Positions 2,001 to 55,530 of a stretch of DNA of 64,000 nucleotides are shown here, one piece after another. Made by a program: the position numbers and the translations under genes. The notes under the pieces were generated by a model that made no database searches, was not told the DNA's origin, and saw only the letters and a list, made by a program, of their open reading frames with translations. Each line of letters starts with the position of its first letter. Positions within the stretch are counted from its first letter, which is position 1. The DNA is from a virus (lineage: Duplodnaviria > Caudoviricetes). The stretch lies in the IMG/VR virus record IMGVR_UViG_3300012979_000004, positions 1-64,000 of that record, one strand, 5' to 3'.

Positions 2001-2027
2001 AATTATATATTGATTAAAATAACATCA

Positions 2028-3188: not shown

Positions 3189-3251
3189 AATTATTTAAAT
3201 AATTAATGTTCAATATTTGTACGCTTATTGTTGCGTTGTATTTAAAACCAA

Positions 3252-3716: not shown

Positions 3717-4288
3717 TACACAACATAGTTTACAAAATCGATCAATAAAATATCCCTATCCGTACCCTTTTTGTAATTTTTCTTATTGTATTTCTTTGCA
3801 TAATACCTAGGATATACATCGTCTATTTTAGGCAATACCACAGAACTATACAATTCTTTACAAGTAGGGTTGTTCTTAAATTCATAGTCGGTACCCCAAT
3901 TGTACAAGTTTTTACCACACCAGAATTTAATATTTGGATATAGTTGTTCAAATGCAGCACAATCGCACCTAAAGTGTCTAATGCTACTCTTTTCATATTG
4001 CTTTTTATTGCGAACTTCGTGCAATAATCTTACGTATACATCACCCTTTGAATTAAGCCATTCGAGATCTTTAAGCAAATCAGCCACGTCTATTTTGTAC
4101 ACCATAGCTCCGTGCGCTACCTGCAGTTCATCTCCTTTGTATCTAATCCTTAGATCAAAACATCTAACACCACGTTCGTATTGAGTTTTTATATCCCAAT
4201 CCTAACACTGTGCTATAAATCTAAAAGGTCTCATGTACCACTTCTTTGGTGGTAAATAACTCCAGCTATTATGACTCCCTAGTATCAT
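3716..4288 (-). CDS. PI-PLC-like phosphodiesterase (TAG read-through)
   Basis: With TAG=Q the protein reads MILGSHNSWSY...IAQCQDWDIKTQYERGVRCFDLRIR...VAHG, matching the PI-PLC X-box pattern. Confidence 0.7.
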
Positions 4289-4505
4289 TTTCTTCCTCCT
4301 TTTCTTCAACATGACCCACAGTCATCCAAAGTACGATATCTGATTCAAGCCATTTGGAAAATGATGCTACAAACTCGTCGAGAAACTTTTTAAGATTTTC
4401 ATCGTGTTTGAAAAAAATACTATATCGTTTATCCTCAGGCGTAACTCCGTCAACCTTATCCGATTTTTTTATGGCATGCAAGCCTACGTTTACCATCTTT
4501 TTCAT
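4269..4505 (-). CDS. Hypothetical protein
   Basis: 78-aa ORF overlapping both neighbours in the operon. Confidence 0.55.
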   Translation of the reverse strand: MKKMVNVGLHAIKKSDKVDGVTPEDKRYSIFFKHDENLKKFLDEFVASFSKWLESDIVLWMTVGHVEEKEEENDTRES

Positions 4506-4888
4506 ACCCTTTTGTATCCTTTTTTATCTAATACGTTTTGTAATATCCACTGATGTAAATATGTAAATGCTTCATTTGAACCATTCACTTGGTACTCAAC
4601 TCCACAATAGTTTAACACATGAAACGTAGCGTGCAGCACTTCATGTCCAGCTACACTTATTTCGACAGGAGTCGTTGGCATTTTATATATATGCACAATG
4701 CCCGTGCCATCTCCTCTATAATAAAATGAAGCGTCGTAATCATCAGGATTTACGTTTTTAATAATGTCTAACAAGCAATCATCTTTTAAGTGTTTGTTAG
4801 CATATTTTAATAATTCCTCATGTGAACCTATAAACACGTCTATATCACGTCTATATGGATCACACGGTATTGTTTTTATTTTTGCCAT
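4502..4888 (-). CDS. Small zincin-like (HExxH) protein
   Basis: GHEVLHATFH...NEAFTYL. Confidence 0.65.
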   Translation of the reverse strand: MAKIKTIPCDPYRRDIDVFIGSHEELLKYANKHLKDDCLLDIIKNVNPDDYDASFYYRGDGTGIVHIYKMPTTPVEISVAGHEVLHATFHVLNYCGVEYQVNGSNEAFTYLHQWILQNVLDKKGYKRV

Positions 4889-5186
4889 GTTTATATTTGA
4901 GCATTTCTTTTACACATCGCTTCTACTAGTTTCTCGGCAGACGTCTAATGATTGATTTGAAGTAATTTTCATCATCATAGCCATACATAAACAAATCTAA
5001 AACCAATCTTAAATACGGAGATTGTTTACAGAAGCGACGTGTAATAATATTTCTAACAAACTTTACATTCTTATATAACCAGGTGATTGTAGATATAGTC
5101 AATAGGCTAAATGCTACTCTAGCAGCATAAATCAATCCTTGAGTTTTATATGCGTGTTTTATTTGTAGTATATCAAAATTTTTCAT
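4860..5186 (-). CDS. Hypothetical protein with hydrophobic segment (TAG TAG read-through to TGA)
   Basis: ORF 4926-5186 extends to a TGA at 4860 if TAG=Q. Confidence 0.45.
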
Positions 5187-6580
5187 CTTCTTGGCGGTTT
5201 GATAGATTTACCTTTATTGTGCTCTTGAAGTGCGCCAAACGTTCCTCCTGTGATTACAGCAGCTGGCAAAAAATTGCCAGTTAATACTTTCCAAGCATTG
5301 TGATAATCTTCTGGAGTGTCTAACTTTAGATCACCAGTCCAAGGATGTTTCTTAACTGCATCGTTGACAGTCTCCATGATTTTTCCAAAATCGACAATTG
5401 GAACACCTGTGTTATATGGATCAAATGTAGGTTCTTGTTGGTACGGTTTAAGACCGACCTTTCTCCCTGCCTATAAGCCGTGAACAACAAATTCGTGTGG
5501 TTGACGAATATATTCTTCCGCGTCATCTCTAAGCACGCTTTTGACTTTCTACTCAAGAAACTAGTTTGTAGCATCCGTCTATTCAAAAAGTTGGTTGTAA
5601 GCCTATTTTGCTGCATAGTAATCTCTTTTAGCATCACGTATCTACATAAACGGCGCACCAGATCTTTCTAACTATTCGAGTTTAAAGCCTTTTTCCTAAT
5701 AGTCGTCTAAGAGTGACCAGAGTTTTGGATAATCCCAATTTGTTTTCCCAAATCCTTGCAAATGCAGAGCTTCGTGGAATATGGTTGTAGGATCTGCAGA
5801 CTCTCTCGCCAACAACGAATAGCCGTCTCTTAGACCAATAACGTCTTTGCCTAATATTTTGTCGGCATCCACGTCTGGTACAATTTTTATCTACCCAGGA
5901 AACTTCCCATGTCCCATAGGTACCTATAAAGGAAACCCGGCTTCTTCAGACAATCTATCGACAAGATGTTTTCTTGCTGGGTTGTCAAACGCATCAAAAG
6001 CATCGAATATACCATTGCGCCTGAAAACCTCTTCTGTAAAAGGACCTTTCATCGAACCACTTTGATACGAACGGTGTGGTAGATTTAAATCTTGCCATAC
6101 CTGTTCCGCAACAGGCAATACTTTCGAAAACGTTGGAGTAGCAACAGCGTCGTCTATACTATTACTCAACGCCTTTGCAGCAAACCAATTGGTTACAGGT
6201 TTCATCGCTCTGCCTATATACGGCATTGCAAAATTTAAAGCTTTTCCACCAAGCCACCCCAGCCCCTTAAATATCGGACCAAGAGCTGCTCCTTCAACAA
6301 TTACCTATCCTACAGGGTCAGTTCCGCTTAATGGTAGATCTTTTTCATATACCGTATACGGCCTACCTGTTTGAGGGTTTATTGGTTCGTGATATGCAGG
6401 TTTTGTTGCTTCTGGTTGATTCCCGTATCCTATATAAGTTGTTCTAGGCTACATAGAAACAATAACTTCTTTGCTGTTTTCAGTTGGAACTTTAGTGCCT
6501 TTAGGTATCCATGGGTTACCGCCTGTACCGACGTCATATTGATATTTCGGCAAATATATATTTTTTAAATTATTGTCCAT
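5183..6580 (-). CDS. 465-aa protein with HExxH zincin motif (many TAG codons)
   Basis: ATG at 6580 is in frame with fragments 5924-6226 and 5183-5377; only TAGs interrupt; motif IFHEALHLQG. Confidence 0.7.
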
Positions 6581-7478
6581 ATAAAACAGGGTTTATTTTT
6601 ATTCCTGACTTCCAAACTCCATTTGGAGCTTCTTCGCGCATGACTGCTTCGAATGCTTTTGCATCTTGTATCCACTAATACGCATCACCAATTACGTCTA
6701 CAGCATTCAATGGCTTTATGATTTTAGCTAGCTTTTTGTTATAATACTCCGCATATTGTTTTGCAAGCGTTCCGTTGTTTACAGGGGTCTTTTTTTTACG
6801 GTTTAATAACAAACCTATTGTGCCTAGAACATCCGTACCATCACTTGTTCCAATTGCTTCGTCGTCTGGGCTAACACCCAATATGTCCGTGATGTTTGTA
6901 ATAGCTCTAGTTTGCGGAATAAACGAAGCAGTGCGATACAATAGATTTCCAAGAGCTTTACTGCTTTTTGGAAGCTCGCTTGGCGCATATACCATATCAT
7001 TATTTGCCTGTTGCTTATCGCCTGTACCACCATCATATTTAGGAATCGGCTTCGAGTGGTTGTATTTTGTACCAAACATCTGCCAATTTTGAGGATAGAA
7101 TTTATCATTTTCTCCCCAACTACCACCTTTAAGCCCTTCTGGATTAAACTTGGATTTCTTACCGCTGTATATAGATTGTTCACTGAACGTGGGATGATAT
7201 ACTGTTTTGAATTCATCGGTCCAATGAGTGTCTGCGTTAGCTTTAGACTTTGGGTATTTGTTATAATATCCACGATAATCATAGTCGTTTGCGTTCAGGA
7301 TTCTAGTAAGAGCTGCGTCTTCGCTAACGTCTTCCCACTTTTCCCAATTTTCTTTTGCAACATTCTCCATCGTCGAATAATATTCGTCATCGCTTATTGG
7401 TTTACCCGCATCATACACCTTTGCTCCGTTCTTCCACCTATTGAATCTTTGTCTGAATTGTGTAGAATCTTTAACCAT
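6570..7478 (-). CDS. Hypothetical virion-associated protein (302 aa with read-through)
   Basis: ORF 6675-7478 extended through one TAG to a TAA at 6570. Confidence 0.65.
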
Positions 7479-7635
7479 ACTTTTGATTATTAATCATTCT
7501 GGACGCTACCAAGTTAGCCACCACGTTTGATACAAAATCCTAAGTATCGTCATGTTTTGCTTCGTGTCGTAAATACGATAATATTTCTTTAAGCATCGCA
7601 TTGTTTTCGCGAGCTAATCTTAGTAGTTCGTCCAT
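7471..7635 (-). CDS. Small hypothetical protein (54 aa, one TAG)
   Basis: MDELLRLARENNAMLKEILSYL... fills the gap between portal and the next gene. Confidence 0.5.
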
Positions 7636-7642
7636 AAATTAA

Positions 7643-10129
7643 TTATTTTTTAGATTCACCTGAAACACGGTTCCTTAGTGCAGTTTTAGCTTTAAGCTCC
7701 TCTCGTTTATATGCAGCGTCGTCTTTCTGCTTCTGCAATTCTGTTTCATGCTTCATACGATCACGCTCAAGCTACATCTTCTTATCTTCTATCTCGCGTT
7801 TCTGTCTCTGTTCGTAACGTTTAATGTATGACTCTTCTGCTATCTTACGTTGAGCAGTAGCGTCCTTTGCTATTTCAATCGGATCTGGAATGCCGTTTCC
7901 GTCAGCGTCCTTTTCTTCAGAACCGCGATATGCACTAATTTCAGCAACTACAATTCTAGTCTGGTTATCTTGATCAATCTTATATCGTTCGAGATCCATC
8001 TTCGCTTCTTCTAACATGAGCTCTTGTTCACGCTGTTCGTTTTGCATTTGCTGTATTTGTACAGCCTGTTGCTGTTCAGCTTCTTGTTGAGCTTTTTGAG
8101 CTTGTTCTTGACGCTCCTGCATGTCTACTAATTTCTGTTTAAGCAGATTGAGGTTGTCTGTAGTAAGAACCTCTGCAGCTTCTAATAACGAAGCACCGTT
8201 TTGCATAGCAGGTTGAATGAGTTGTTTGAGGGCTTGAATATTCTCAAGATCTCTAGATGTATCGCTTACAAACACATCCATATCTTCGTAATAGAATTTA
8301 GGATCTATATCCAAGAACGCTCTTTCGCCTGTGTCGAATACGTAAGACAGCTTCTGTTTACCAGTCTCTTCCCAAGCACCTTTTGCTGTATTCAACAACA
8401 TATTTAACGCTCTACGTTTGCATTGCGCGTGTACCCAGAACAAAGGTTCTGTGATGTGAGAAGACTGTAACACAGATCTTTCCACATTTCCAACAAGCTC
8501 ACTTGTACTCACCTGTCCTTGTCGTTGTTCTGTAATACCCGATATAGTTCCAGCAAGATGTTCAATCTTGTCCATCAACTGTATGTATTCAGCAATAACG
8601 TTGCCCATAGTCAAGTCTGCCTAACCAAATTGGTTGAATGCGGCAGCTCTGGTTCCATTCGGATCCGATGGGTTTCCTTCGTATGGATTCACAAAGTTAA
8701 CTCCTACCGAAGATAAATAGTGTAACCACCTCTCTGGTGTAATTCCCATTGATTTTGGAATTTGTGTAATGTCCATAGTTATAACCTTACCTTTATCTCT
8801 GGCTATAGCTAATTCCAATCTGTACCATAGTACTATGTACATGTACTGGAGAGGTTTTAGAATGCTAACCAACGAACGTGGTTTACTATTCGTATTGCTG
8901 TATATTGCCCCTGTGTACGGTAACTTTTGTGAATTTGGATTGTCTATAGATACGTGTTGGTACTCTACTGGCTGTATACCGAAATATAAATCTGTACCTG
9001 CGCGATATCCTTCCCAAACTTCTACAACCCAATCGATGTCTATAGAAAGTTCGGTTCCTGTCTTTTGATAACCTTCGTCTTCTATTGTCACCTGAGGTTG
9101 ACCGGACTCGTCTAGATATGTTATGTAATATATCTTTTTAAACGATTTCCAGCAGCAATGCCACACGTTTATACAACCTCTTGTGTTTTGATCATATATC
9201 GGATTGTCGTATATACGCATGCTGATGTGGTTAAAATCGTCAACCGGACCTTTGTCTCCGAGGTCGTTCGAGGGTCTTCCCGTCATCATCTCCTCAAGCT
9301 TGTTCAAATCTTTTTCTGTAAGCTTGTCGTAATACCGATCGTATATCTCTGTGTATGGCATTCTCATTCTACGACAACACCAAGCACCGTCTTCTATAAA
9401 TTCCAAATCTGGGCTTTTGTCGTATGAAAAATACAATGGGTTCACACGTTCCAAATAAGGTTCGCTGTTCATTACACCAACGTAATAAATTTCGGTTCCT
9501 GATATAAGTGCGTCCTTCCAACCTTTTATAAACTCGTTGTCAAAACTGAGTTTTTCTCTGAGGTATGTTAGAGTATGGTATGCTGTATTTTCAATTACGT
9601 CCTTGTAGCTTTTGTTCAAATACTTGCCGATTTCTTCAGGAGGCATGATCTCGCCGCTTTGAATCTGTTGTTGATACGCAGCAGCCTCTTCTTCACTCAT
9701 TCTGGCAGTAATGGAAGCCATGATGTAGCTCAACAACATCTCTTTACCTTTTTCCTATATTTCAGATACAGATTCTTGAGAAGTTCTTACGACTTTAAAA
9801 TTTAAAGGACGTTTTGTTTCCTCGCCTATCAATAGATCTATCTTAGGTCGAATGATGTTGAAATCCTATGGCGTTGCCGGAAATCCATCCTCGACTTTAA
9901 ATGGATTTGTTATCTTTTTAAAATCCTTTTCGTCGAATATACTATTATATAAATTATAACAGGTCTACATCTCTCCATATCTAGTTTTCGTTTGCCCACC
10001 AGATACCACGTTGCCTTCGCCTATTATGTAATTTACACAATCGTGTTGCCACTTTTCATTTTTCTTTTTTAGCGAAAGTTTCTGTCGAGGGAATGAAGAG
10101 TTGTATAAATTGTCTTCTATTCGTATCAT
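7643..10129 (-). CDS. Portal protein (828 aa, TAG=Gln)
   Basis: Fragments 8621-9739 and 7772-8614 are in one frame from ATG 10129 to TAA 7643, directly downstream of TerL. Confidence 0.85.
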
Positions 10130-10131
10130 CG

Positions 10132-12195
10132 TTAAAACGTGAATAACGGTACATCACTCTACGTGTTCTGTTCGCCGGTCTACCAATATTTAGATCCGAA
10201 CAGCGGCAGTTCGAAGAGTTCAACCTATTTGTTTTTTTCTTTTGCAGCCTACACCTTTACTTGATATAATTCTTCTCTGTATATCATTACCATACATAGT
10301 GCTATCAATCTATCCACGTTTCGTATACCATCGTTTTCGATCAATTCCTCAAGCAACGGTTCGCTGTATATTCTCTCTACATTAGGGTGTCCAGGTTCGT
10401 ATTCGTCCATCAACCATTCTAGAATAAGACCTTCTCCATATGCCCTAATTGCTTTTGTCATGTGGCAGCCTTTTCGGCGCTGCACTTTACTGTCTTTAAA
10501 GACTTCCGTAATCACTTTATCTGGCTAGTCTGCAAGCAGATAGTCACAATGTTTATTTGTGAAGTATGGGTATATACCTTTACGTTCGTTCTCAAATAGC
10601 AATCTTGCGTTGTACAACATCAATAATTTGCGAACGTTTTCATAATATTCTTCGGCAGTAGACGGTCTACCTGAATACTCTGCTACTATGACGTCATTCC
10701 ATGTTTCTCCGGCCTACACTCGTTTGAATATGAAAGTAGACCCTAATGAATTCGTAAAAGACTCATCGTGATCATAGGGGTCACACCCAGCTATGTATAA
10801 TCCGAACGGAGGATCTTCTACTGGAAACTCCCATATTACAACACTTCCTTCAGGTTTATCATCCTTCTTTAAATGAAACGTTGTTATGTCACCACTTTTC
10901 TTTTCTCTAGCCTCTACTCTACCGCTACCATCCCACACTAAATCTACAACGTGTTTCATACTACGCAGCTTCTCGCTGGTTCGTAGTCTTGTCAACTGGT
11001 CCATGAGTAATTTTCTAGGAAATATGTTTTTTCCAAGTTCGAGTACTGCTTCTTGCGGTTTTGTTGGTCGTTCTGATATAAATCGGTCGATTGATTGTTG
11101 AGATGCTCCACCGTCCTTGATGATGTTGCGTTGTGCCATTAATTCTTCAATTGCTTTATCTTTTAAAGAATTACCGTCTTTATCCATAAACCTAGGTTGA
11201 CCGGTTTCATCAACACCTTCCATGTTCATATAAGATGGGCTGAAGAACGCACACTTTGTATCCTGTCTTCCGTCGTCCCATATGTTTGGAAAGCTTAGAA
11301 CGTTGAACGCTTCCGGATTGTAGAATATGGTTTTCAATCCGTCGAAGCTAGCACCTTCTGTACCGCCTGTTCCAAATGCTATAAGCAATCCGAATGCTAC
11401 ACCGTCGTCTGTTTCAACAGCAGGTTGTTCTACTCGCCACGCAGTCTCTAGATTTGGAAACTTACCGCCTTCTTCAAACAATACTAGTTTACCACGAGTA
11501 CCTCTAAGTCGCTCTGGGTCGTTTTTAAGAGTAATGCCTGTAATACTGGATAAATATCCCTGTTCTGTTTGTTTACCAAACTCATCCGTCACCTTAAAAC
11601 CAGATACACGTTCCATTCGCGTAGACGTAAGTCTTTGTTTAGACCAAGCGGTATGTTTGTCTATAAAGTCCATTATCTACCAGGCTTTTGTTAATATGCC
11701 GTCTCCAACCAGAAACTTCTGCTCAGAAGCTACTGCAAAGTTTTTAGATCCTGGTATAAGTTCGTAATTTCTAACCAACATAGACGCGCCTTTGAAACTA
11801 TATCCTTTCTAACGCGCTTTTAACACAGCCATGTGTTTTCCAGAATCTTCTGCTTCTTCTATGGCATTGTAATAATAATAATCGCCATCCCAAAATCTAG
11901 GAAAATCAAACACACGTTCTCGTCTAGTTCTCTTCTGACCGTATCTATCTGTGTATTCAACTTCTTTTAGAAGCATGATTGGGCTGTAATTTAAATAAAA
12001 ATAATGGTATCCTGTAATAGCGTCCCCGTCTGGAGCCACATACCCATGTAAGCATCTTTCTGTTTCCCTGTCCCAATATCTCACATAATCGGTAGTTCCT
12101 CTTGGGGCAAGGGTATAACAGCCGTGCTCTTTAAAGAAGTTAGCAGCCTCACAAAACTTCTAACTGTTATATATCTTTTTATTAAAATCTACCAT
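10132..12195 (-). CDS. terL: Terminase large subunit (687 aa, TAG=Gln)
   Basis: Walker A KAR[TAG]KGYS, Walker B LVLFEEGG, nuclease motif YIAGCDPY; three track fragments in one frame. Confidence 0.92.
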
Positions 12196-12198
12196 ACA

Positions 12199-12717
12199 TT
12201 ATCGTACTGTTTCGTACAAGCCTATAGTTCCACCGCCTTTGATTTTTCCAGATTCAAGCTGTTCTGCACGAGCTTGCTTCATTGCGACATCTAGCGATTT
12301 TACTATGCTTCCCACATCTTTCAATATCCTCGTAACCTTTATAGCTGTATCTATATCCATTGCTTCTCTAGAGTAGTCGTTTAACGCAGCTATAAGACCT
12401 TCAGCAGCAGTTCTAGATGCTGTTAATAACCTTGTGCCAGGTGTTTCTTGAAATTCATTAAAACGTTGAGCAAGAGTTTGAACTTCAGCGGAAGGAATAT
12501 AATTTTCATTTTTGAACACGTCCTTGGCTACAACCGAAGGTCGTTCTTTTGTAGAATACGCTTCATACGGAGTATTCCACTTGTGTAGCCAAATAACGTA
12601 TTCTATTTCTTTCAATGCTTGACTTTTATCTTTTGCATTGTTGTAATGATCTTTGAAAGGAGGAATTGATAGATCTTCTGTGTTTAATCTTATTTTATCC
12701 CCTTGTATGTCAAACAT
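12199..12717 (-). CDS. Protein upstream of TerL (possible small terminase)
   Basis: 172-aa helical ORF abutting TerL. Confidence 0.5.
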   Translation of the reverse strand: MFDIQGDKIRLNTEDLSIPPFKDHYNNAKDKSQALKEIEYVIWLHKWNTPYEAYSTKERPSVVAKDVFKNENYIPSAEVQTLAQRFNEFQETPGTRLLTASRTAAEGLIAALNDYSREAMDIDTAIKVTRILKDVGSIVKSLDVAMKQARAEQLESGKIKGGGTIGLYETVR

Positions 12718-13105
12718 ATCGTTTTACTAATTTTTCAAAAAATCTATACATTCTTTGTATGATATGTCCTATCAAATACGCAGCTGTCTCACTGCGCTCG
12801 TCTATATCATAGTACGAACATATGTGGGACTGTACATGCTTGGCCTCATGTATTACAGTACTTACAAATTGTTCAACATCTGTAGCGGCTCCTATACAGA
12901 CAATACTCATCAGATAATCTGTATTGCTAAACGTAAACCCTGTGTTTTTATATCTGAGTGTACGAAAAGCCTTCTTTATGAACTTAGGAGGGCATTCTAT
13001 TTGCTACAACACATCCACAACTTCAACGTAGTCATCTACTGTAACATTGTAGTACACAAGCACATTCCATTCACCATTGCCTAATTGTATATACTGCGCA
13101 GTCAT
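12710..13105 (-). CDS. Small zincin-like (HExxH) protein (one TAG)
   Basis: VIHEAKHVQ...SETAAYL; start extended upstream through a TAG. Confidence 0.6.
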
Positions 13106-13106
13106 A

Positions 13107-13487
13107 TCAAACAAATTCAGACCAATCTACAGTTGTACGCGTTCCTTTTACATCAGAAATCCATCTGTTGAACACTTGTCCATCATATCCATCTGGATCA
13201 TCGATTACATTTTTGACATACATGCACAAATGCATATCGTCATTTGGTACAGATTTACCTAAGAAGTCTGCCTTACACATATTAGCAACATAAACCGCAT
13301 CGTACAACTTATCGTACTATAGTTTTATATTACACTGCTTCAGCTTAGCTTCTAGTTCTTCTTTTGTAATCATTTTTATCTCACCCTGTTCGTCTTCCAT
13401 GAGACTTACTGCAAATTCGCATAGTTTTTTGGTGAAATGAGGACCGTACAACTTTAGGTATTTTTTATACATTCTAGTTGTCTCCAT
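13107..13487 (-). CDS. Bacteroidota-phage-type hypothetical protein (one TAG)
   Basis: YGPHFTKKLCEFAVS...YDAVYVANMCKADF in one frame across a TAG. Confidence 0.6.
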
Positions 13488-13989
13488 GTGCATTCTGTTT
13501 GGTTAACAATGATTCAAGCCTAGTAAGCACGCTTTGTACATCATCTACACGTTTTGTAAGACTGTCTATTGCTTCATCTCGCTCCGTTTCTTTAGCATAT
13601 ACCGGATTTAAATCTTTCAGTATCTTTTCACACGCAGCAATGTTTGAACGATGTTGTTCTACACTTGCTATCACGTTTTTACTATTCTAAAGCAGAGCGT
13701 CTACTTCTTGAATCATGCCTTCTTTTGTTTCACAGATGACATAATCTCCATACGAGTGTATTGTATTTATACTAGGTACTCCGATGAATTCCTTCCTCTC
13801 GTTGTCTATTGTTACAACAATGTCAACCACCGTCTGTAAATTAGTGCCGAAGCTGACAGAAGGATTGAATGTCTTGTACATAGGGTGTGGTGGTGTTATA
13901 TTATCTACATAACCCACGACAACTTTTGGGTCTTCGCTTTTGTCCAATATATAAAGCGCGGTTCCTTGACGTAATCCTGAAAACATAAT
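13465..13989 (-). CDS. Hypothetical protein (TAG read-through joins two track ORFs)
   Basis: 13687-14019 and 13474-13674 are in frame; likely start MFSGLRQG. Confidence 0.65.
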
Positions 13990-14055
13990 AATCTTGAATT
14001 GTGTCGTCGGGCGGGGCAATACCCCGCCATAGACACGTGTTAATTCTAATTAAAC

Positions 14056-14370
14056 TTAAGCATATCTGCGTGAACGCACCCCTCTGCCAGAACGCATGCG
14101 CATACCGGACATTTCAGAGTTTTGCGAACCTTTGCGCATTCCTGATCTATATGACTTGTTGCGAAAGTCAGCTTCGTAGCTCTCTCGCTCACCATACATA
14201 TCTTCATACTCATCATCCTCGTACTCATCTTCAGAGGATTCAAAACATTCGTAAAGCGTTTCTTTTAATTCGTGCATGTACTGCTTCTTTTTGCGACCGA
14301 GGTCTTCGATCTCCCCAAACAGGTCAAACACTTTGTCTTTAGCAGCCTTACGTAATTCTATTACCATCAT
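14056..14370 (-). CDS. Hypothetical protein with acidic and Arg/Gly-rich tail
   Basis: 104-aa ORF within the operon. Confidence 0.6.
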   Translation of the reverse strand: MMVIELRKAAKDKVFDLFGEIEDLGRKKKQYMHELKETLYECFESSEDEYEDDEYEDMYGERESYEADFRNKSYRSGMRKGSQNSEMSGMRMRSGRGVRSRRYA

Positions 14371-14386
14371 AGTGTTATAATGTATT

Positions 14387-14743
14387 TTATGCTGGGATTT
14401 GAGTCGTTAACAGCTGTACCAAATTACTATTTTTATCATAGTGAACGAGGTAGATTCCTGTATCTGGAATCTGGGATACTGTTATGTCATCTCCTCCAAC
14501 ATTGGTTAAAGGTTGTGTAAAATCGTTAGCCGAAAATACGATCGGCAGCGTGTCAGTTGTTCCGTCTGGTATAACCTGATTAAGTCTTATGAGGGCAAGA
14601 CCTCTTGTCTCTAAAAACCTAAACGCTCTATTTGGTAAAGCTAGAACAACATTGTCTGTACCAACAGTCACTGAAGTTGTTTCCAGTAAAGGAATTGTAG
14701 TCCTGTTACAGAAATTATATGGATATATAGTACTTCCAAACAT
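14387..14743 (-). CDS. Hypothetical beta-rich protein
   Basis: ORF within the operon, start MFGSTIY. Confidence 0.6.
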   Translation of the reverse strand: MFGSTIYPYNFCNRTTIPLLETTSVTVGTDNVVLALPNRAFRFLETRGLALIRLNQVIPDGTTDTLPIVFSANDFTQPLTNVGGDDITVSQIPDTGIYLVHYDKNSNLVQLLTTQIPA

Positions 14744-14760
14744 AAGTACCTCCTTCCTTA

Positions 14761-15645
14761 TCAATTCCAAAAACTGTTAGAGCCAACATTAGCAAGACCA
14801 CACAATGTATTGATTGTAGGTGTTGTGTTTATTGCTGTAAGATTTGGCCACTGTACAGGCACTGTGTGAGGTTGACACGCCTTGAGTGAAGTGAGCTCGT
14901 TCTGGATTTCATTGAATCTCTGGTTGATAAGAACAGTCTGACGTTCGTTGTTTGCATTAGAACGCAACAGTGCGTTGTCTGCAACAAGTGAGTCGATCTT
15001 ACCCTGGAGTTCACGTTTCTCAAGATCAAAGAAACGATTGTTAATCATAACACTCTGAGCGTTAATAGCATCTGTGATGTCACGAGTATTGCGCTCTGCC
15101 TGATTCATTAGCGTGTTTGTTTGCTGACATGATGCAAGCTGATCTGCTGCATGGTTAGACGCCATTACAGACTGCAATGAGTTAGTTTGCTGTGCAATAG
15201 CGAGTCTGTTCTCGCAGCAGCACTGACAGATCTGTGATGCAAGTGAAGCATTACCTGCCTGTATTGCGTTCTGAATCTGTAAGCCGCTCATGCCTACCTG
15301 AGTACCAACAGAAGTGATAGCGCCATTGAGGGCACAAATACCATTCTAGATAGAAGTAAGGTCTGTGTTAAGCAGGTTTGACAAGCTGTTGATTGATTCA
15401 CGATTACCCTGAATTGCATTCATAAGTAATTCGCGACCAGTATCGTTGCTAAGTTGATTTTGCAACAGTCCTGTACCATTACCTGCACCATACCCGTTGT
15501 TACCCCAAAGAAGCCACAAGAACAAAATCCAGATCCAGTTATTACCACCGAATCCACCATTGTTATTCAGGGCGAGCATGAGGTTTGGGTCAATGCCGCT
15601 GTTTGTTCCATACTCAGGGAACATCATAATTTTTGAACTTTCCAT
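14761..15645 (-). CDS. Gly/Asn-rich membrane-anchored protein with CCC motif (294 aa, one TAG)
   Basis: NNGGFGGNNWIWILFLWLLWG...QICQCCCENRLAI; two track ORFs in frame across the TAG at 15346. Confidence 0.7.
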
Positions 15646-15963
15646 AATTAGAAATTTAAAGGTTGAATATTAAAGGTTAAAAATAAGTACAGGCCCCGCA
15701 GGGCCTATACAACAAATACTCTATGTTTAAACAGCCGAGTCTGCTGCATGCTTGTCTTAATATCAACCTTAACACATGTCCAAGATGTGTAAATTCGAAA
15801 CATGGTTGTTTTGATACAACCTAGGATTACGTAAATATAAATTCACATGCTTTCATAAAACCTGTTTCGATAGTAATGTTACTAACATGTGAATAAAAAT
15901 AGACAAAGGGGCTTGAAGCCCCAGCGTCTAAATCAAGTTATATATATGAATTTTTTTTCATTA

Positions 15964-16461
15964 TCAAGCATTAGTATCAGTAACTTCTGCTTTATTGTCA
16001 GCTGCGACATCTACGTTAGTGTCAGCAGCATCTGTAGATCCAAAACCACCATCACCACGATCTGTTTCTGTCAGTTCTGATGCTTCTGTGATCGTTATTT
16101 CTGGTATTGCTACAATTACAAGTTGTGCAAATCTTTCTCCAGGTTTGTATATCGCTGGGACTACATCTGTAGTAGATCTCATCTTTGCTATCACTTCGCC
16201 TCTAAATCCAGCGTCTATCACACCTACACAATTTGTAAGGGTGAGTGATTTTTTAGAAATGCTAGATCTTGGAAACAGCAGACCTACATGTCCTTCTGGA
16301 ATCTCCATGGACAACCCTGTATGATATACTATAATCAATTGTCCAGCTTCGTTGAGTTCCTGAGTAATGTTTGTGCATGTTAAATCGATTCCAGCGTCTG
16401 TCTTATGTGCGCGAATCGGTAGGATTGCCTCCTCTGTAAGTCGTTTGATTTTTAATTCCAT
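15964..16461 (-). CDS. dut: dUTPase
   Basis: Motifs AGIDL, PRSSIS, GVIDAGFRGEV, RFAQL, RGDGGFGST. Confidence 0.95.
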   Translation of the reverse strand: MELKIKRLTEEAILPIRAHKTDAGIDLTCTNITQELNEAGQLIIVYHTGLSMEIPEGHVGLLFPRSSISKKSLTLTNCVGVIDAGFRGEVIAKMRSTTDVVPAIYKPGERFAQLVIVAIPEITITEASELTETDRGDGGFGSTDAADTNVDVAADNKAEVTDTNA

Positions 16462-16506
16462 TGTATATTGTTTTTAATGTGTTCACAGCGTATACAGCTG
16501 TATTAG

Positions 16507-16578
16507 TCGCCCCACCATCGAATCGGACCCGGTCCTGGGAGGTTAGAGCTCCCCGTGCTACCATTACACCATAGGGCA
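16507..16578 (-). tRNA. Amber-suppressor tRNA (anticodon CUA), Gln-like body
   Basis: TGCCCTA-TG-GTGTAATGGTAGCAC-G-GGGAG-CT-CTA-AC-CTCCC...TGGGGCG-A; T arm distorted. Confidence 0.85.
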
Positions 16579-16766
16579 ATATGTTTGCAGTACATATAGA
16601 CTGTATATCAGCCCTCGTATCGAGGGCGGGACTTGGTTTATCCCAACCAAGCGGATTAAGTGCAGCTTTACGCAGCAGATTACCAGTAACATCTCCAGTC
16701 TGCACTACGTCTTATGTGTATGTATCTAGAATATACTTCCAGCGGCATAAGAATCAGCTGTATTTG

Positions 16767-16844
16767 TGCGAAGAATGGGATTTGAACCCATAGACACCAA
16801 TGTTTGTAACATGGTTGCTGAATACCAATATCAGCTTTCTTCGC
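16767..16844 (-). tRNA. Atypical tRNA, anticodon ACA
   Basis: GCGAAGA/TCTTCGC acceptor stem, GCTGA/TCAGC D stem, anticodon loop TTACAAA, T arm ATGGG-TTCAAAT-CCCAT. Confidence 0.65.
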
Positions 16845-16885
16845 CAGCAAGATTACTTTTTCGCCATCTTGTGAGGCGATTGTTA

Positions 16886-17224
16886 TTACTTACCTGTGAT
16901 CCAATTCCAGAACCTCTTATACCAAGGCTTCTTTTTCACCTCGATCTTTACTGCTGTAAACGGTACAGGTTCTCCATTTTCAATCACAACTGCGTTATGA
17001 CCGTCAAATAATGCATCGATTACAGAATCTGTTACAGATTCGATTGTATCGTTGACGATTACATCCACCTCGCGACTGGTAAGGTCAAGACCTGCTTCAT
17101 GTTTTGAATAGATCATCTCAAGGAGAGCGTCTTCTTCTGTTTCGCAATTTGTAAGGTCTACTGTAAACACAGGCTTAAATTCTACCTTTACTGACTTCTT
17201 GTTATTCTTCTTTGTAGCTTTCAT
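16886..17224 (-). CDS. Hypothetical protein with KKPWYKRFW amphipathic tail
   Basis: ORF within the operon. Confidence 0.65.
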   Translation of the reverse strand: MKATKKNNKKSVKVEFKPVFTVDLTNCETEEDALLEMIYSKHEAGLDLTSREVDVIVNDTIESVTDSVIDALFDGHNAVVIENGEPVPFTAVKIEVKKKPWYKRFWNWITGK

Positions 17225-17229
17225 ATATT

Positions 17230-17592
17230 TTAATTTTTTAAACTGATACTTTCTGTGGCGCAGCACTTTTCGCAATCACAATCGCAAATACCACATCTCT
17301 GTGCTTCATCGAGTTTGTGTTGAGCTTCTATGTTTTCAATCCACTCTTTGCTAGTCACCACGATAGCTGCGTGTTTAGGAGCTGCACTATTGTAGAACAG
17401 TATTATGAAATCGTCTTTTTTAACTTCTTTGTTTTTAAAATCTGTATCCTGAATACTAACGATTCCATCTTCAGGTACTCTGTATACCCAATCGATTCCG
17501 GTTGACAAGTATGATGTCACATTCAGATCGTTTGTTTCTGTATCTACTGATATAAGGCCGGCGTGTCCTCGTTTTATTAAATACTTCTTCAT
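17230..17592 (-). CDS. Hypothetical protein with Cys-rich C-terminus
   Basis: 120-aa ORF ending in CGICDCDCEKCC-containing tail. Confidence 0.6.
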   Translation of the reverse strand: MKKYLIKRGHAGLISVDTETNDLNVTSYLSTGIDWVYRVPEDGIVSIQDTDFKNKEVKKDDFIILFYNSAAPKHAAIVVTSKEWIENIEAQHKLDEAQRCGICDCDCEKCCATESISLKN

Positions 17593-17807
17593 ATTTTTGG
17601 ACTATATTTTTTATTTTTGTTATCTTTAAATCTACTCTTTAGTTTAAATTTAAACAGCCTATTGAATAGTATTTCATGTGTGTCGTTGCCATCTTTCATT
17701 ACGTCTGTTGTAAATGCAAATGCGTGTTTACAAATTTTATCCACAACATCCCGGTTTACATTCGTACGGGCCGACACCTCTTTGATTACGTCATCTATAT
17801 CTATCAC
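17589..17807 (-). CDS. HU/IHF-like DNA-binding protein
   Basis: 72 aa; two helices followed by EILFNRLFKFKLK; basic. Confidence 0.55.
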   Translation of the reverse strand: MIDIDDVIKEVSARTNVNRDVVDKICKHAFAFTTDVMKDGNDTHEILFNRLFKFKLKSRFKDNKNKKYSPKI

Positions 17808-18229
17808 TTTTCTACAGCAATGATGTCGTAATATCTAATAAGCTTGCTGTCCTTAAGTAAATCGAAGTACTTACCGTGTGTATCTGGAAACAGAACAATG
17901 TCTCCAACCTTTATCTTGTAAGTCATACCAGCTACCTTTTCATCGTTGATTTGATTTTGGTACGAAGTTGGGATTTTCAACACAACGCCTTTTCTTACGT
18001 CTGCATCTACTTCCTTTACCTCTGTCTCAACTTTATCAAAATCCACAGCTGTTATACCGTTTTTGTCTTTAGTAGGAGTCTCTTTATTTGCGACTGGACT
18101 ACTAAACTCTTTCTTTACTTTGATCGGATCCAGGGGTTTTACCAAGAAAAAATCAAGAAACTCGTATGGAATCTTGCTAGCTACATCCTCAGCTAATCCC
18201 GATTGATCAATAATTTTATTTTCTTCCAT
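17804..18229 (-). CDS. GroES-like co-chaperonin
   Basis: FLVKPL...KGVVLKI...IKVGDIVLF...YYDIIA pattern. Confidence 0.55.
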   Translation of the reverse strand: MEENKIIDQSGLAEDVASKIPYEFLDFFLVKPLDPIKVKKEFSSPVANKETPTKDKNGITAVDFDKVETEVKEVDADVRKGVVLKIPTSYQNQINDEKVAGMTYKIKVGDIVLFPDTHGKYFDLLKDSKLIRYYDIIAVEK

Positions 18230-18230
18230 G

Positions 18231-18641
18231 TTACTTCTTAAGTGTTTTCAAATAAGATAAAACTTTGATCATGTTCTGCAATACTGTTGTTTTTTCGACC
18301 TTTAGGCACATTGGGATATCCTCTTCATCCTTGTTCACATTGGCCAATTCAACTACGTATTTGTTGAGAAGATTATCAATTTCATCAAACACGTTTACAA
18401 ATTTCTGAGAATTCTGTGTAACCGTTGACAAATAACCCTCTTCGATCAGTTCTTGTACGTAATTTGGTGAGAATGTTAACGATTCTTTGTATGTAGAATC
18501 GTATGTTTCACCATTACTGCCAGTGCGATCAAATTTCTCCTCCTTGGCATAAACGTACATGTTATCTTTTTCCGAATATTCTAAAACATCGCCTTCTTTA
18601 AGTACAAAGAAAGGCTTAATTACCTTTAAAGTTTTGCTCAT
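18231..18641 (-). CDS. Hypothetical protein, first gene of the leftward late operon
   Basis: ORF starting MSKTLKVIKPF. Confidence 0.65.
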   Translation of the reverse strand: MSKTLKVIKPFFVLKEGDVLEYSEKDNMYVYAKEEKFDRTGSNGETYDSTYKESLTFSPNYVQELIEEGYLSTVTQNSQKFVNVFDEIDNLLNKYVVELANVNKDEEDIPMCLKVEKTTVLQNMIKVLSYLKTLKK

Positions 18642-18846
18642 TTCAATACTTGTTTTTAACAATGACACCCCCTTAACGCATAAATACATAAAAAGGGTTG
18701 CAAGTGCAACAAAAAAGTCAAAACTTACGTTATAGTAGTAACACTTTAAAGCAGCTCACAAAAGAAAGTAGCAAAGAAAATAAATATATATTATATATTA
18801 TAAAGCTATACAGAATAAGTAAGACTATCTATATTAGTAAGAAGAT

Positions 18847-21890: not shown

Positions 21891-22335
21891 GCTGTGCTTG
21901 GGGTCTAAAACCCTAAAAACTCTCTCTTATTCTTTCTCTTTATATATTTCTCTTTCTTGTTCTCTCTCAAAAGAAACTAATATATAAATATATACAAGAA
22001 AAGATCTCTCTCTTTCCTTCATGTGTTTTCACATCAAATTAGATCCTCTGACGTGCAAATGATACACAGTCGTGTCCGTCCTCCTTCGTCGGACGTTCAC
22101 TCCTGCCTTTCGGGCGTGTTTGATTCCAACTTAGGTTGTTTTTTGACGTGCAAATGATACTTTTTGTAGCTGTTGCATATTTATATTTTAAACAAAAATA
22201 TGTGCATGTTGATGCATTTGGTGGAGAGAATTCACACCAACGCATTTTACACGCTTCCAGCTCATGAAACAAAACCGAGCACACTTAATATATAGCGTTT
22301 GAAACATTTATTAACAAACTAAATACTTTCAGCTT

Positions 22336-23016
22336 ATGCGTTATCTATTAAAGAACATCACTATTTACGAGAGAACAAACACTCGTGGCAGCTACAAATG
22401 GTTGTATGCAAATCTGTTTAACGATGCAGATATCTTCGCTAACCCAAGTCCACTTCCATCCTATTACATGGTATTACCAGAAATGGTGGAAATGTACACT
22501 CCGTATACCAAATTGGATGCGTCTCGCACAACAACAGACCAAAAGGTATACACAATCGATGAAGCGGCAATAAACACTGCAATCAGCGAAAACAAGATAC
22601 CAGACCTTATGCATATCGACCATGTGTTCGCAATCACACTGCCTCTTCCAAAAACGTATGCAAGAGTACACAAATCAGACAGAATTGAAAACAACATGCT
22701 TGTAGCCAAAGCTGGTGATTTTGTGAAAAATTCACAAGGAGAGATAACACCTGTGAACACTCTTACACTGTACATCAAGAAGCGTTTTGACCCAGAAATC
22801 CAGGACACAACAAAACAATGGGATTGGGTAAGAGCACCAGAAGATGTGATGCGAGACACAATCTCAAGGTCGTACAAAGAGTACAACGTAGCACCAGTAG
22901 CCACAGAAGCAGTACAAGACACAACGCCAGCACCAGAGACTACTTCTGCCCAAACAACGACAGAAGAAGAAATCGAACGAGCTCGTGCAATCCTTGCTGC
23001 AGCAAACAGTAATTAG
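22336..23016 (+). CDS. Early hypothetical protein
   Basis: 226-aa ORF with AT-rich leader. Confidence 0.8.
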   Translation: MRYLLKNITIYERTNTRGSYKWLYANLFNDADIFANPSPLPSYYMVLPEMVEMYTPYTKLDASRTTTDQKVYTIDEAAINTAISENKIPDLMHIDHVFAITLPLPKTYARVHKSDRIENNMLVAKAGDFVKNSQGEITPVNTLTLYIKKRFDPEIQDTTKQWDWVRAPEDVMRDTISRSYKEYNVAPVATEAVQDTTPAPETTSAQTTTEEEIERARAILAAANSN

Positions 23017-23071
23017 TGATAATGGCGTGTACCTCTACAAAGAGGGCACGCCTCTTTTGAAATCAATTCAC

Positions 23072-23272
23072 ATGGACCAAATGATTGAGACAAGAGAATT
23101 ACTTCGTAAGAATCTTATCAATCACAAGAGCAGTGAGAAGAAGGAATATCTCACAGACGAACAGCTTACAAGCATCTTCTCAATCTTCGTCAGATTGACA
23201 GACAGCAGACAGATGCAAACAACAAATTCGTTCAAAACCGTAGACTTAGAAACTGAACTAAATCTCGGCTGA
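23072..23272 (+). CDS. Small hypothetical protein
   Basis: Likely start MDQMIETR. Confidence 0.55.
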   Translation: MDQMIETRELLRKNLINHKSSEKKEYLTDEQLTSIFSIFVRLTDSRQMQTTNSFKTVDLETELNLG

Positions 23273-23317
23273 CAACGAGGTCCTGGGTAAGACTAAAAAC
23301 TGCCCAACTTTCAAATA

Positions 23318-23374
23318 AACTGTCGGGTTCACCAAGACCCCTGATGAGTCGCTGAAAATTGCGACGAAACAGTT
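23318..23374 (+). ncRNA. Type III hammerhead ribozyme 1 (predicted cleavage after GUC, 23324)
   Basis: AACTG-TC / GGGTT..GACCC / CTGATGA / GTCGC..GCGAC / GAAA-CAGTT. Confidence 0.9.
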
Positions 23375-23875
23375 AACATCCGTAGCCAATTATCAAGAAT
23401 TGTCTGTAGTAATAACAGTCAAGTTGTCGGTAAGATAAACTGAAACCGTCTAATTAATCCACTGATAAATAGGTGGACCATTTAAAAACCTCTAAAGAAT
23501 AAACCACTATATTCGTACTATACCCGTTTGTTAGTGGTTTATGTATGCACAAATTCATTATCATTATTATGTCGTACGGTGGTGTAAGTTTGGTCGCTTA
23601 TGCCACTTCTGAGTGACATTAAATTGTACACACATGCAGCAGATCCTAAATTAGCTGCATTGAGGGGCTAAAACAGTTTAGACCGACATTGAAAGACCAA
23701 TGTAAACTGTTGATGCCTGTGTGTACTAGTCTCGATTGCATGACGAAAAAATGAACTTGGTTAGTCATTAGGAGCAATCTAAATGCAATGCTGCGATGTT
23801 GGTCTATACTCAACAACAGCAAAGAAAACACCAAAGGAACGGTTTATGACCGTTCCTATTGGTTGTTTGATACAA

Positions 23876-23930
23876 CCTGTCCTCACGTAGATGTGGGCTG
23901 ATGAGTCTTGGCAGATTAAGACGAAACAGG
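23876..23930 (+). ncRNA. Type III hammerhead ribozyme 2 (predicted cleavage after GUC, 23881)
   Basis: CCTG-TC / CTCAC..GTGGG / CTGATGA / GTCTT..AAGAC / GAAA-CAGG. Confidence 0.9.
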
Positions 23931-24197
23931 ATTAACACTTTATTCATAATAAGAAAAAATTAGGTTTCTATGCACAGTTATAATAAACCCTCAAAAAGCG
24001 TTTTGACTCGGTATATCTGTATATAGAGCCACCAATGTGATTGTTTGTGAAAATAGTCACATTTATTATTAACCAAAAAATTGGTAAAATGTTACATAGC
24101 TGTAAAATTGTGTTGTAAAAATTACACAGCCGGTATAAGTCGTGAGATTACATGCTGGCATTCTTTAGAAAATCAATAAACACCAAATACATAAAAA

Positions 24198-24473
24198 ATG
24201 AAAAAAGAAATTGCAAAAGAAACAAAAATCGTGTTGTCTGGACTAAATCAGTCTGAACTCAACACACTGGCATCATTGTCTGATTCAGTGCGTAAGTGTT
24301 TAGCATCATTTGATACAGAACATCCAATGTATCTTCAAAAAGCTGAATATCAGCTATTAAATGCTGTTTTCTGCGTATTACTTGAAAATACAACCACTGA
24401 ACCAGAATTGAATCGCTTTGAACTTGCTAAATCTGACCTATGCCCACAACAACAAGGTAGATTTGCATATTGA
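24198..24473 (+). CDS. Hypothetical protein
   Basis: 91-aa ORF with A-rich leader. Confidence 0.65.
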   Translation: MKKEIAKETKIVLSGLNQSELNTLASLSDSVRKCLASFDTEHPMYLQKAEYQLLNAVFCVLLENTTTEPELNRFELAKSDLCPQQQGRFAY

Positions 24474-24868
24474 ACAAACGCTTCCGTGTGGGCGTACAAA
24501 AACGCACGAACCAACTCAACTTTTAACCAAACCAAAACATGTGTGCGACAAACAATTAACAAAATGTCTATAGAGTAAACCTTTTCGTCTATTATGTCGC
24601 ACACAGCGCTGAGGTAGTTTACTACCACCGCAGACGGAGCCTTTTGAACGTTGTGTAACAGCAATGTTCTTAAGGCTTTGATTGAACTAAATTCAACACT
24701 ATATGAAACCGTCGTCATTTTTAGTTCTATTTATCTGTCTGGCCCTATTTATAGTGGGCATCGCTCTCATCATTACTCCTATTTTAAACAAGTTTATTTT
24801 AGGGGTATTTACACACTAACGTGAGTGGAAAATCCACTTGTGTATCAAACATTTAATAATCATTAAAC

Positions 24869-25063
24869 ATGAAATTAAGCAAAGAATCTTCAAGACTAAT
24901 TGCTGAGTATCAACGTGCACAAGAAGAAGGCAATATGCCATCTTATCTAAACCCTGAAAAATTAGATGAGACTTTAGGTGCAGTTCGTCGTATATCAACA
25001 TGTGTAGATGAAATATTCGGACAAGTTGTATACAAAATACTCGAGCAAAACAAATTGAACTAG
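24869..25063 (+). CDS. Hypothetical protein; TAG stop
   Basis: 64-aa ORF. Confidence 0.6.
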   Translation: MKLSKESSRLIAEYQRAQEEGNMPSYLNPEKLDETLGAVRRISTCVDEIFGQVVYKILEQNKLN

Positions 25064-25125
25064 ACTAACACAATTACCTATCAAAGGTATTTGTCTTCTT
25101 ATGCTTATATTTCAAAAACAAACCT

Positions 25126-25308
25126 ATGGCAAAATTCATAAAGATAAACAAACAAAAAGAAGGCTGTACGGCCGTAAATGTAGACGCCATTACGTCAATC
25201 TATTTTTACGATGACGAAGAATACGCAACATTGTGTTTAGAAGACGGTATGGAGTTCACAATTGATAACAATGACGAGATAGAAGAACTAAAAAAGCTTG
25301 TATCATGA
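25126..25308 (+). CDS. Hypothetical protein
   Basis: 60-aa ORF coupled to the next gene by ATGA. Confidence 0.65.
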   Translation: MAKFIKINKQKEGCTAVNVDAITSIYFYDDEEYATLCLEDGMEFTIDNNDEIEELKKLVS

Positions 25309-25565
25309 AACAAATGTTATTCAAGACGTTAAAAAGGTTGTTCCAAACAATCTTTCTATCAGTGTGCACAATTGCTATACTGTTGACAATAGCTTTTTCA
25401 TCAATCTTAATCTCTTGTAAAACTGTATCGAAATTAAAGTTATACAAAGATTATTACAATGCTACAGAAGAATTATTGGATTCATTAGAATCTGAATTCA
25501 ACTGGATAGATAGATATGATGGAGAGGCTTTGTACAAATATGAAGATGCAGTAAAAAAGATATGA
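25305..25565 (+). CDS. Membrane-anchored hypothetical protein
   Basis: N-terminal hydrophobic segment. Confidence 0.65.
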   Translation: MKQMLFKTLKRLFQTIFLSVCTIAILLTIAFSSILISCKTVSKLKLYKDYYNATEELLDSLESEFNWIDRYDGEALYKYEDAVKKI

Positions 25566-25736
25566 CAGAAAATGATTATTTCATAGAATGGCATTTAGCA
25601 CTAGTTGCTATATTGGCTGTTGTGTGGTTAATTCTTTACTTTTTAACAAGAAAGTGAGAATTATAAAAATGACGACGATGCTAAGCACAGATAGCAAAAG
25701 GTTCTGTGCAAGTTAAGTTTATCAAAAACAAAAAAC

Positions 25737-26312
25737 ATGAAAAATTACAAAATGGTGTATCGCATCATAGATGATGCAAAAACAATCGAAGAGACTTTTG
25801 AAGCAAAAGACATTAACGATGCCGACAAAGTAGCAGGACGTTTGTTGTCTATGATAAGAAAGGCAACAGACAGAGGCTGTGAAATAGTGGAACTAAGTGA
25901 ACTTTGTAAATCAAAGTTTAACGAATCTACAACACAGGTCAACGAAATGGAAGTAGTTTCATCAGATGTCGTAGGTGTTAGGATTGAAGCAAAAGACAAT
26001 GCGTTGGTATTCTCTATGAATACGGTAGTTCCAAAAACTTGTAACGTTGCAACAGAATTAACAGCACTTACAAATGCAACATGTAGTCAATCTATAGTAA
26101 ACCTAAAGGGTGATGATGAAACTACAGGTGTTGTAAGGCTGGTAAAAGTAACTAAAGTACTGCCAAACAACATGAAATTAGGAGATCTCGTTAACATGAG
26201 AATTGCTATTTCAAACATTTGTGCTGTTTGCGCAGGAAGAATCTTCAACGCAGATTGCGATAAAGTTATTTCAGAAGCGATTAAAGTGTTCAATGCAAAT
26301 GGAAAATACTAA
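25737..26312 (+). CDS. Hypothetical protein
   Basis: 191-aa ORF. Confidence 0.75.
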   Translation: MKNYKMVYRIIDDAKTIEETFEAKDINDADKVAGRLLSMIRKATDRGCEIVELSELCKSKFNESTTQVNEMEVVSSDVVGVRIEAKDNALVFSMNTVVPKTCNVATELTALTNATCSQSIVNLKGDDETTGVVRLVKVTKVLPNNMKLGDLVNMRIAISNICAVCAGRIFNADCDKVISEAIKVFNANGKY

Positions 26313-29442: not shown

Positions 29443-29650
29443 TCTAGCTTGTGTGAAATAAACTATTCGGACGAGGGGGCAGTACCCTCGCGGTCCACAA
29501 AGAAAGAATGTAAGATTTTGGGCCGCAAATAGTGTTTGACGGGTAGTGGATATAAACACGTTAAGCTATTACATAAATCTAACTGGCAATTCTTATATTG
29601 CTGACTACACTAAGCTGGCAGCTTAATGGTTCTCTAATTGAGATTTAAGT
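29443..29650 (+). ncRNA. ssrA: Circularly permuted (two-piece) tmRNA; outer ends approximate
   Basis: Acceptor piece first (GAGGG-GGCAGTA-CCCTC-GCGGTCC-A, ends 29497), 22-nt spacer, then coding piece GGGCCGC (29520) giving G3-U70. Tag GGC..GCA GCT TAA at 29585-29626. Confidence 0.88.
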
Positions 29651-49601: not shown

Positions 49602-49667
49602 TTCTTTATACGCATAATCCATCGTGACGATAGATCGGGATGCCAGAAGATAAATTAGAAAGACAAA

Positions 49668-55514: not shown

Positions 55515-55530
55515 AATTTATCATCCTTTA

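Follow-up and report, generated by a model that had tools for sequence, protein, structure and literature searches.

A pair of hammerhead ribozymes predicted to bound a conserved, structured and non-coding RNA of a crAss-like phage from the rumen

Two type III hammerhead ribozymes, here called HH1 and HH2, lie in the same orientation in the genome of a crAss-like phage, and the 557-nt piece between their predicted cleavage sites is, as judged by comparative sequence analysis, a member of a conserved, phage-only structured-RNA family that is uncatalogued in Rfam 15. Based on the comparisons reported here, we propose as the probable account that self-cleavage by both hammerheads would free a discrete, linear and compact non-coding RNA of 557 nt, that HH2 would replace a terminator in this phage, and that the family would consist of modular RNAs of rumen crAss-like phages.

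The phage and its hammerhead ribozymes

The window, which denotes the whole stretch of 64,000 nt that was analysed, covers the initial 64 kb of a virus record that is 99,927 bp long and has terminal repeats of 123 bp. The minus-strand late genes (1-18700 and 49600-64000) are open only when TAG is read through, with stop-free frames of up to 6227 codons, and only under TAG=Q do the portal (7772-10153) and the large terminase (10132-12198) match PHROGs strongly (E 7e-160 and 4.5e-144). The terminase shares 83% identity with its counterpart in the crAss-like phage cr272_1 (Crassvirales, Suoliviridae, Oafivirinae). The host of the hammerhead cassette is a TAG-recoded rumen crAss-like phage of 99.9 kb, Suoliviridae-like in its affinity. 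The cassette is located in a standard-code block of the plus strand, about 4 kb into the plus-strand gene block, where HH1 and HH2 occupy the 925-bp gap between the plus-strand ORFs 22985-23272 and 24198-24473, and a promoter of its own is not obvious. The neighbouring ORFs gave only weak, sub-threshold matches to Pfam and PHROG, and a search for related loci through single neighbouring proteins (the 226-aa ORF and the sigma factor) returned none. The 226-aa upstream ORF was also considered as a partner of the RNA and dropped, because its homologues at 64% in L198 and L199 are found without an adjacent cassette.

Other RNA elements were recorded in the window. A permuted two-piece tmRNA is predicted at 29446-29626 on the plus strand (RF04321, 58.1 bits, above the cut-off), with the tag GNSYIADYTKLAA according to ARAGORN, and a tmRNA is also present in the related phages L060 and L082. 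Sub-threshold group I intron matches (RF00028, 37.9 and 24.7 bits) lie in the late-gene region at 347-590 and 955-1081, both on the minus strand. A weak tRNA with a poorly aligned anticodon arm at 16766-16844 on the minus strand (36.2 bits; Cys(aca) in ARAGORN) could be a TAG suppressor tRNA.

A preliminary description of this DNA had noted two complete type III hammerheads in the same orientation, with predicted cuts after 23324 and 23881, and both stand up to closer analysis (Table 1). In an Rfam scan the two match RF00008 (Hammerhead_3), HH1 with an E value of 5.9e-8 over the whole window and HH2 with 3e-4 over the 64-kb window and 1.9e-5 locally; HH1 scores above the gathering score of 48.5 bits and HH2 below it, and many hammerheads of sister phages score 37-46 bits against the same model. 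Each contains, by hand and in the Rfam alignment, the full catalytic core CUGAUGA...GAAA (CUGAUGAG...CGAAAC) and a GUC triplet (NUH class), and each is built of a stem I of 5 bp with a 6-nt loop, a stem II of 5 bp with an 8-nt loop and an open stem III of 5-6 bp. The minimum-energy fold is a three-way junction in both cases. The stems and loops of HH1 and HH2 are unlike, and the two are not repeat copies of each other. On this combination of core, fold and model match, HH1 and HH2 are genuine type III hammerhead motifs for which self-cleavage is predicted.

Table 1. Predicted RNA elements of the hammerhead cassette, in window coordinates
Feature	Position	Strand	Details
Upstream motif, read as H-type pseudoknot	23279..23306	+	GGUC/GACU, UGGGUA/UGCCCA, A-rich third loop
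Hammerhead 1 (HH1), type III	23317..23375	+	predicted cleavage after C23324; loop I CACCAA, loop II UGAAAAUU; RF00008 49.7 bits
Predicted excised RNA, 557 nt	23325..23881	+	from the two cleavage sites; 5'-OH, 2',3'-cyclic phosphate
A module	23420..23477	+	hairpin with invariant 15-nt loop UAAGAUAAACUGAAA and covarying 3-5 bp stem; then hairpin CCAC-UGAUAAAUAG-GUGG
Hairpin AAACCACUA/UAGUGGUUU	23500..23541	+	unseen in the relatives examined except for its last bases
Conserved family core	23549..23789	+	hairpin GGUGGUGUAAG/CUUAUGCCAC, helix GUACACA/UGUGUAC, nested hairpin 23664-23713, 3' domain
Terminal hairpin	23790..23820	+	near-invariant apical CGAUGUUGGUCUAUACUCAACAAC; stem GCUG/CAGC, no U tract after it
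Extra hairpin GGAACGGU/ACCGUUCC	23835..23857	+	weak U-rich tail; common only to L196 (97% relative)
Hammerhead 2 (HH2), type III	23874..23932	+	predicted cleavage after C23881; loop I GUAGAU, loop II GGCAGAUU; RF00008 36.7 bits

A pattern built from HH1 and HH2 has matches at 33 IMG/VR loci, often on records of 95-106 kb, and two fixed loop pairs recur among these loci, namely CACCAA(A) with UGAAAAUU, the type to which HH1 belongs, and GUAGAU with GGCAGAUU or UGCAAAUU, the type of HH2. The stems under the fixed loops vary with compensation, as judged by eye: with the loop GUAGAU, stem I reads, for example, CUCAC/GUGGG, GUGGU/GCCAC, GGGAU/GUCCC or CCAGU/GCUGG, stem II also varies, and the loop pair of HH2 sits on other stems in L004, L008 and L023. 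About 25 distinct phage hammerheads share the HH1/HH2 design; most records of this subfamily contain a single hammerhead only, and those with the GUAGAU loop are usually positioned at the 5' end of units. In all six records with a terminase 77-84% identical to that of this phage the hammerhead lies in the block opposite the terminase, and four reference Oafivirinae genomes (pig, human, macaque) have no hammerhead save one 21.6-bit match. Variant hammerhead cores that RF00008 misses were observed behind the same upstream motif in L060 (~5330-5440), L061/L186, L059, L150 and L170, examples being CUGAUGA-U-GGCAUGAGCC-GAAA and a core with two extra hairpins before stem II.

Clustered hammerheads that flank genes in prophages, with transcript processing as their proposed function, were described by Perreault et al. 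2011 (PMC3088659). As in those clusters, at least two same-strand hammerheads stand within ~2 kb of one another in one phage transcription unit, the cleavage sites here being 557 nt apart on the plus strand of a Crassvirales-like genome, and the core and the three-stem architecture are the same. However, the earlier clusters flank protein genes, whereas the unit flanked here is a conserved structured non-coding RNA without a conserved ORF, and the hammerheads of this phage belong, unlike those of the published clusters, to a close-knit subfamily of crAss-phage hammerheads in which two loop pairs are fixed. Another comparison is offered by the Theta (HDV-like) ribozymes beside tRNAs in recoded gut phages, reported by Kienbeck et al. 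2024 (PMC10879173) in a study that does not mention hammerheads. In both systems small self-cleaving ribozymes would trim the ends of non-coding RNA in TAG-recoded gut phages, but the Theta ribozymes are of the HDV-like class, cut at their own 5' end and have tRNA as cargo.

The bracketed RNA and its family

The 557-nt fragment has a fold energy of -157.3 kcal/mol (z -4.9 against shuffles), and the five hairpins listed in the preliminary description were all found again, each within the minimum-energy fold. The fragment had also been said to lack a plus-strand ORF of 60 aa or more, and in table 11 none reaches even 40 aa; when TAG is translated, no plus-strand ORF exceeds 50 aa, and the one of that length is in a frame that is not kept in relatives. 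A mini-ORF with an AGGAG and an ATG at 23784 was tried as a coding sequence and rejected, as a 4-nt indel puts it into another frame in relatives and HH2 would cut it. Since the frame of this mini-ORF is shifted in relatives, conservation is taken to act at the RNA level.

The apical part of the terminal hairpin is the most conserved block, and a pattern for it has 11 matching loci in IMG/VR, 50 in metagenomes of rumen type and none in 185,579 bacterial and archaeal genomes; blocks shared between the insert and the hammerhead loci were found by BLAST as well. The family alignment (A4), in which the variable region is roughly aligned, comprises 35 non-redundant members (<97% mutual identity) that are 41-77% identical to the RNA of this phage. 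From the alignment, RNAalifold predicted the nested hairpin of the centre as well as the terminal hairpin. In a hand-drawn structure of 41 pairs in seven helices, 95.4% of cells over the 35 members are paired, versus 25-62% when the partners are slid, and 19 pairs are compensatory versus 4.9±1.7 in shuffles, none of the 500 shuffles reaching 19, with controls that leave some phylogenetic signal. The long-range helix is supported by GCACACA/UGUGUGC in most members and GUACACA/UGUGUAC here, and the conserved helices were recovered independently by the single-sequence fold of this phage's RNA. G-U pairs and terminators both indicate that the RNA is encoded on the plus strand.

A model of the 50-position central domain (R1) gives a single match per genome, which in this phage is at 23664-23713 with 62.5 bits; it hit 8 of 38 records and none of the four reference Oafivirinae genomes. 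No Rfam family, ROOL and GOLLD included, was matched by the insert (E<=1 over 22000-26000; E<=0.5 over the whole window), blastn of 22300-24500 in near and distant modes gave no match among the INPHARED phages, and we found no earlier account in the literature that describes this RNA or reports hammerheads from crAss-like phages. A search of the phage genome for sites complementary to the invariant loops returned none.

ROOL (RF03087) and GOLLD (RF02032) are large ornate RNAs (Weinberg et al. 2017, PMC5737381; Kretsch et al. 2025, PMC12286853), of which ROOL, initially discovered in the rumen, has a mean length of 581 nt. The RNA described here is like them in being about 0.5 kb long, highly structured, phage-associated and without an assigned function, but it matches neither covariance model, contains other helices and other invariant sequences, and has ends that would be set by ribozymes. 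A GOLLD-like match was observed in a related 104.6-kb phage (L062, 158-555 on the minus strand; RF02032, 96.3 bits against a cut-off of 150 bits, E 4e-24), 1.1 kb downstream of the terminal hairpin of its family RNA.

Ends and modules among the relatives

At the 3' side, 33 of the 35 members end in a last hairpin with the stem GGGAGAG/CUCUCCC followed by a U tract, that is, in an intrinsic terminator, and a discrete RNA is therefore indicated. The two members without a terminator are this phage and L181, in which the stem is GCUG/CAGC and the U tract is absent. Here the terminal hairpin is followed by the extra hairpin and then by HH2, and no other member has a hammerhead in the 400 nt downstream. 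In L181 (~1560-1740, minus strand) an apparent tRNA-like element with a GGUUCGAUUCC T arm follows the terminal hairpin, as seen by eye; ARAGORN calls no tRNA there.

At the 5' side, a canonical hammerhead lies 380-940 nt before the terminal loop in about half of the members for which at least 700 nt of upstream sequence are available, and several other members have variant hammerhead cores upstream that are missed by Rfam. The A module, the stems of which covary (CGG/CCG, GCG/CGC, GGG/CCC, AGG/CCU), is found elsewhere 3' of a ribozyme, a hammerhead in many loci, and 5' of differing RNAs; in L131 it is preceded by a twister-P1 match of 41.5 bits, below the twister-P1 gathering score. The elements 5' of the modules vary in this way among canonical hammerheads, variant hammerheads and a sub-threshold twister-P1 match. 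Further upstream stands a 28-nt motif that ends 18 nt before the cleavage site of HH1, has a single copy in the genome and is present 5' of the ribozyme in at least 13 other loci. Its pseudoknot reading leaves 93.6% of cells paired versus 21-40% when slid, with four compensatory pairs, and three of the four pairs of one helix covary. The motif was considered as a phage promoter and rejected on account of its single genome copy and its covarying helices. After the HH1 cut the RNA fragment on the upstream side would have this motif as its 3'-terminal structure.

The two nearest relatives, L196 and L197, were reached via homologues of the 226-aa upstream ORF. L197, with flanks ~91% identical, shares the upstream motif and has HH1 unchanged, followed by a different 300-nt module and then the A module, and both the family core RNA and HH2 are absent from it. 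In L196, with flanks 92-98% identical, the upstream motif is kept, homology breaks at the HH1 cleavage site, and ~285 unrelated bases take the place of HH1 and the A module; the core RNA and then HH2 follow, HH2 being altered by U4-to-C in the core and by a neutral change in a stem. Immediately past the HH2 region, L196 also has a 920-bp insertion (its 4923-5844, at about window position 24078) with a 308-aa ORF that has no Pfam match. Since L196 and L197 keep one hammerhead each, HH1 and HH2 occur independently, the pair being seen only in this phage, and double-end excision is therefore not a conserved requirement. The locus is put together as a mosaic from RNA modules that can be exchanged, and it differs between phages that are otherwise 90-97% identical.

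Release of the RNA and rival readings

Based on this work, we propose that a plus-strand transcript through 23.2-24.0 kb would cut itself at HH1 and HH2, freeing a linear RNA that begins at G23325 with a 5'-OH and terminates at C23881 in a 2',3'-cyclic phosphate. In most relatives the 5' end would be made by a self-cleaving ribozyme and the 3' end by the intrinsic terminator; in this phage, where the terminator U tract is missing, HH2 would take over the 3'-end role and would also free the downstream mRNA. The preliminary description had viewed the pair as protein-free processing of the earliest transcript, which possibly produces a stable or circular RNA. The placing in the earliest transcript gains no support, as the cassette stands about 4 kb inside the plus-strand gene block. 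The processing part fares well, as the ribozymes are complete and the piece that they bracket is conserved, structured and non-coding, and release of a discrete RNA is the natural reading of such a layout, with the cleavage itself predicted; the circular product is weighed below. We infer that the cleavage would occur in vivo, that the unusual ends together with the compact fold may stabilise the RNA and slow the usual decay pathways, and that the RNA may act in trans during infection. As a guess, it may be a protein- or RNA-binding scaffold, broadly like other large phage RNAs.

HH2 might instead serve the unit downstream of it by leaving a clean 5'-OH on the mRNA of ORF 24198-24473, in which case the RNA would end at hairpin 23835-23857 or by decay. 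The usual placement of GUAGAU-loop hammerheads at the 5' end of units speaks for this, as do a hammerhead in G031 (L037) that shares the design and precedes a 117-aa ORF by 23 nt, the two hammerheads in each of G020 and G030 that each head their own downstream unit, and the terminator-like score of the hairpin at 23835-23857. However, a weak U tail (ATTGGTTGTTT) follows 23857, the 265 nt 3' of HH2 are not conserved with any hammerhead-downstream sequence, and HH2 travels with the core RNA in L196. We consider this reading unlikely, though worth a small share of credence, and a downstream role and a role at the 3' end of the RNA are not mutually exclusive. Slightly less credence is given to the hammerheads as punctuation of a polycistronic transcript in which the conserved RNA would be a cis leader or trailer regulating the neighbour genes. 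It would fit the place of the cassette between two plus-strand ORFs with no obvious promoter and the processing proposed for clustered prophage hammerheads (Perreault et al. 2011, PMC3088659), but a terminator separates the RNA from the downstream genes in 33 of the 35 relatives, the flanking genes differ among relatives, and the size of the RNA and the number of its covarying helices are atypical for a leader.

The double-cut RNA might also be closed into a stable circle, either by a host RtcB or by the reverse hammerhead reaction. Hammerhead products carry 5'-OH and 2',3'-cyclic phosphate ends, as used by RtcB-type ligases, and such ends are predicted here; RtcB is present in the control genome of Bacteroides thetaiotaomicron, and the minimum-energy fold pairs the first five bases of the RNA with nearly its last. 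The phage itself, however, has neither an RtcB (PF01139) nor an RNA ligase (PF09414), the two-ribozyme layout is present in no relative, most of them using a terminator, and no hammerhead fold is taken up by the sequence across the ligated junction. Viroid-like RNAs and retrozymes are similar in that a non-coding RNA some hundreds of nucleotides long lies between type III hammerheads and has ligation-compatible cleavage ends. Unlike them, this RNA is encoded once in a dsDNA phage, its relatives combine one ribozyme with a terminator, and its bounding hammerheads are not copies of one repeat, as those of viroids and retrozymes are, but differ in stems and loops and would give a junction that folds otherwise. 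Circular products of clustered phage hammerheads were moreover sought by Perreault et al. (PMC3088659) and none was detected. We therefore regard the circle as very unlikely. The same very low credence is attached to a bolder scenario, in which this phage, by losing the terminator and acquiring a hammerhead at the 3' side, would have made a linear phage RNA into a doubly self-excised one that is circularised by the host RtcB, and in which modules would, more broadly, be swapped at ribozyme cleavage sites; if true, it would imply a DNA-phage-encoded, viroid-sized circular structured RNA, and a locus that is a combinatorial set of RNA modules.

Under the favoured account, the release of a linear RNA by HH1 and HH2, bacterial and phage hammerheads, the purpose of which has been obscure since the 2011 catalogue, would here have an identifiable cargo, a phage-only structured RNA of ~0.4-0.6 kb, and the role offered for phage ribozymes would be to give phage non-coding RNAs defined and unusually capped ends. 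Gene-flanking clusters in prophages were already known; a structured RNA as the hammerhead cargo, with interchangeable 5' ribozymes and interchangeable 3'-end formation, would be new. The mosaic differences among phages that are 90-97% identical suggest a fast-evolving locus, which is typical of phage-host conflict genes, and the crAss-like phages, a major group of gut viruses, would gain an uncatalogued family of large RNAs.
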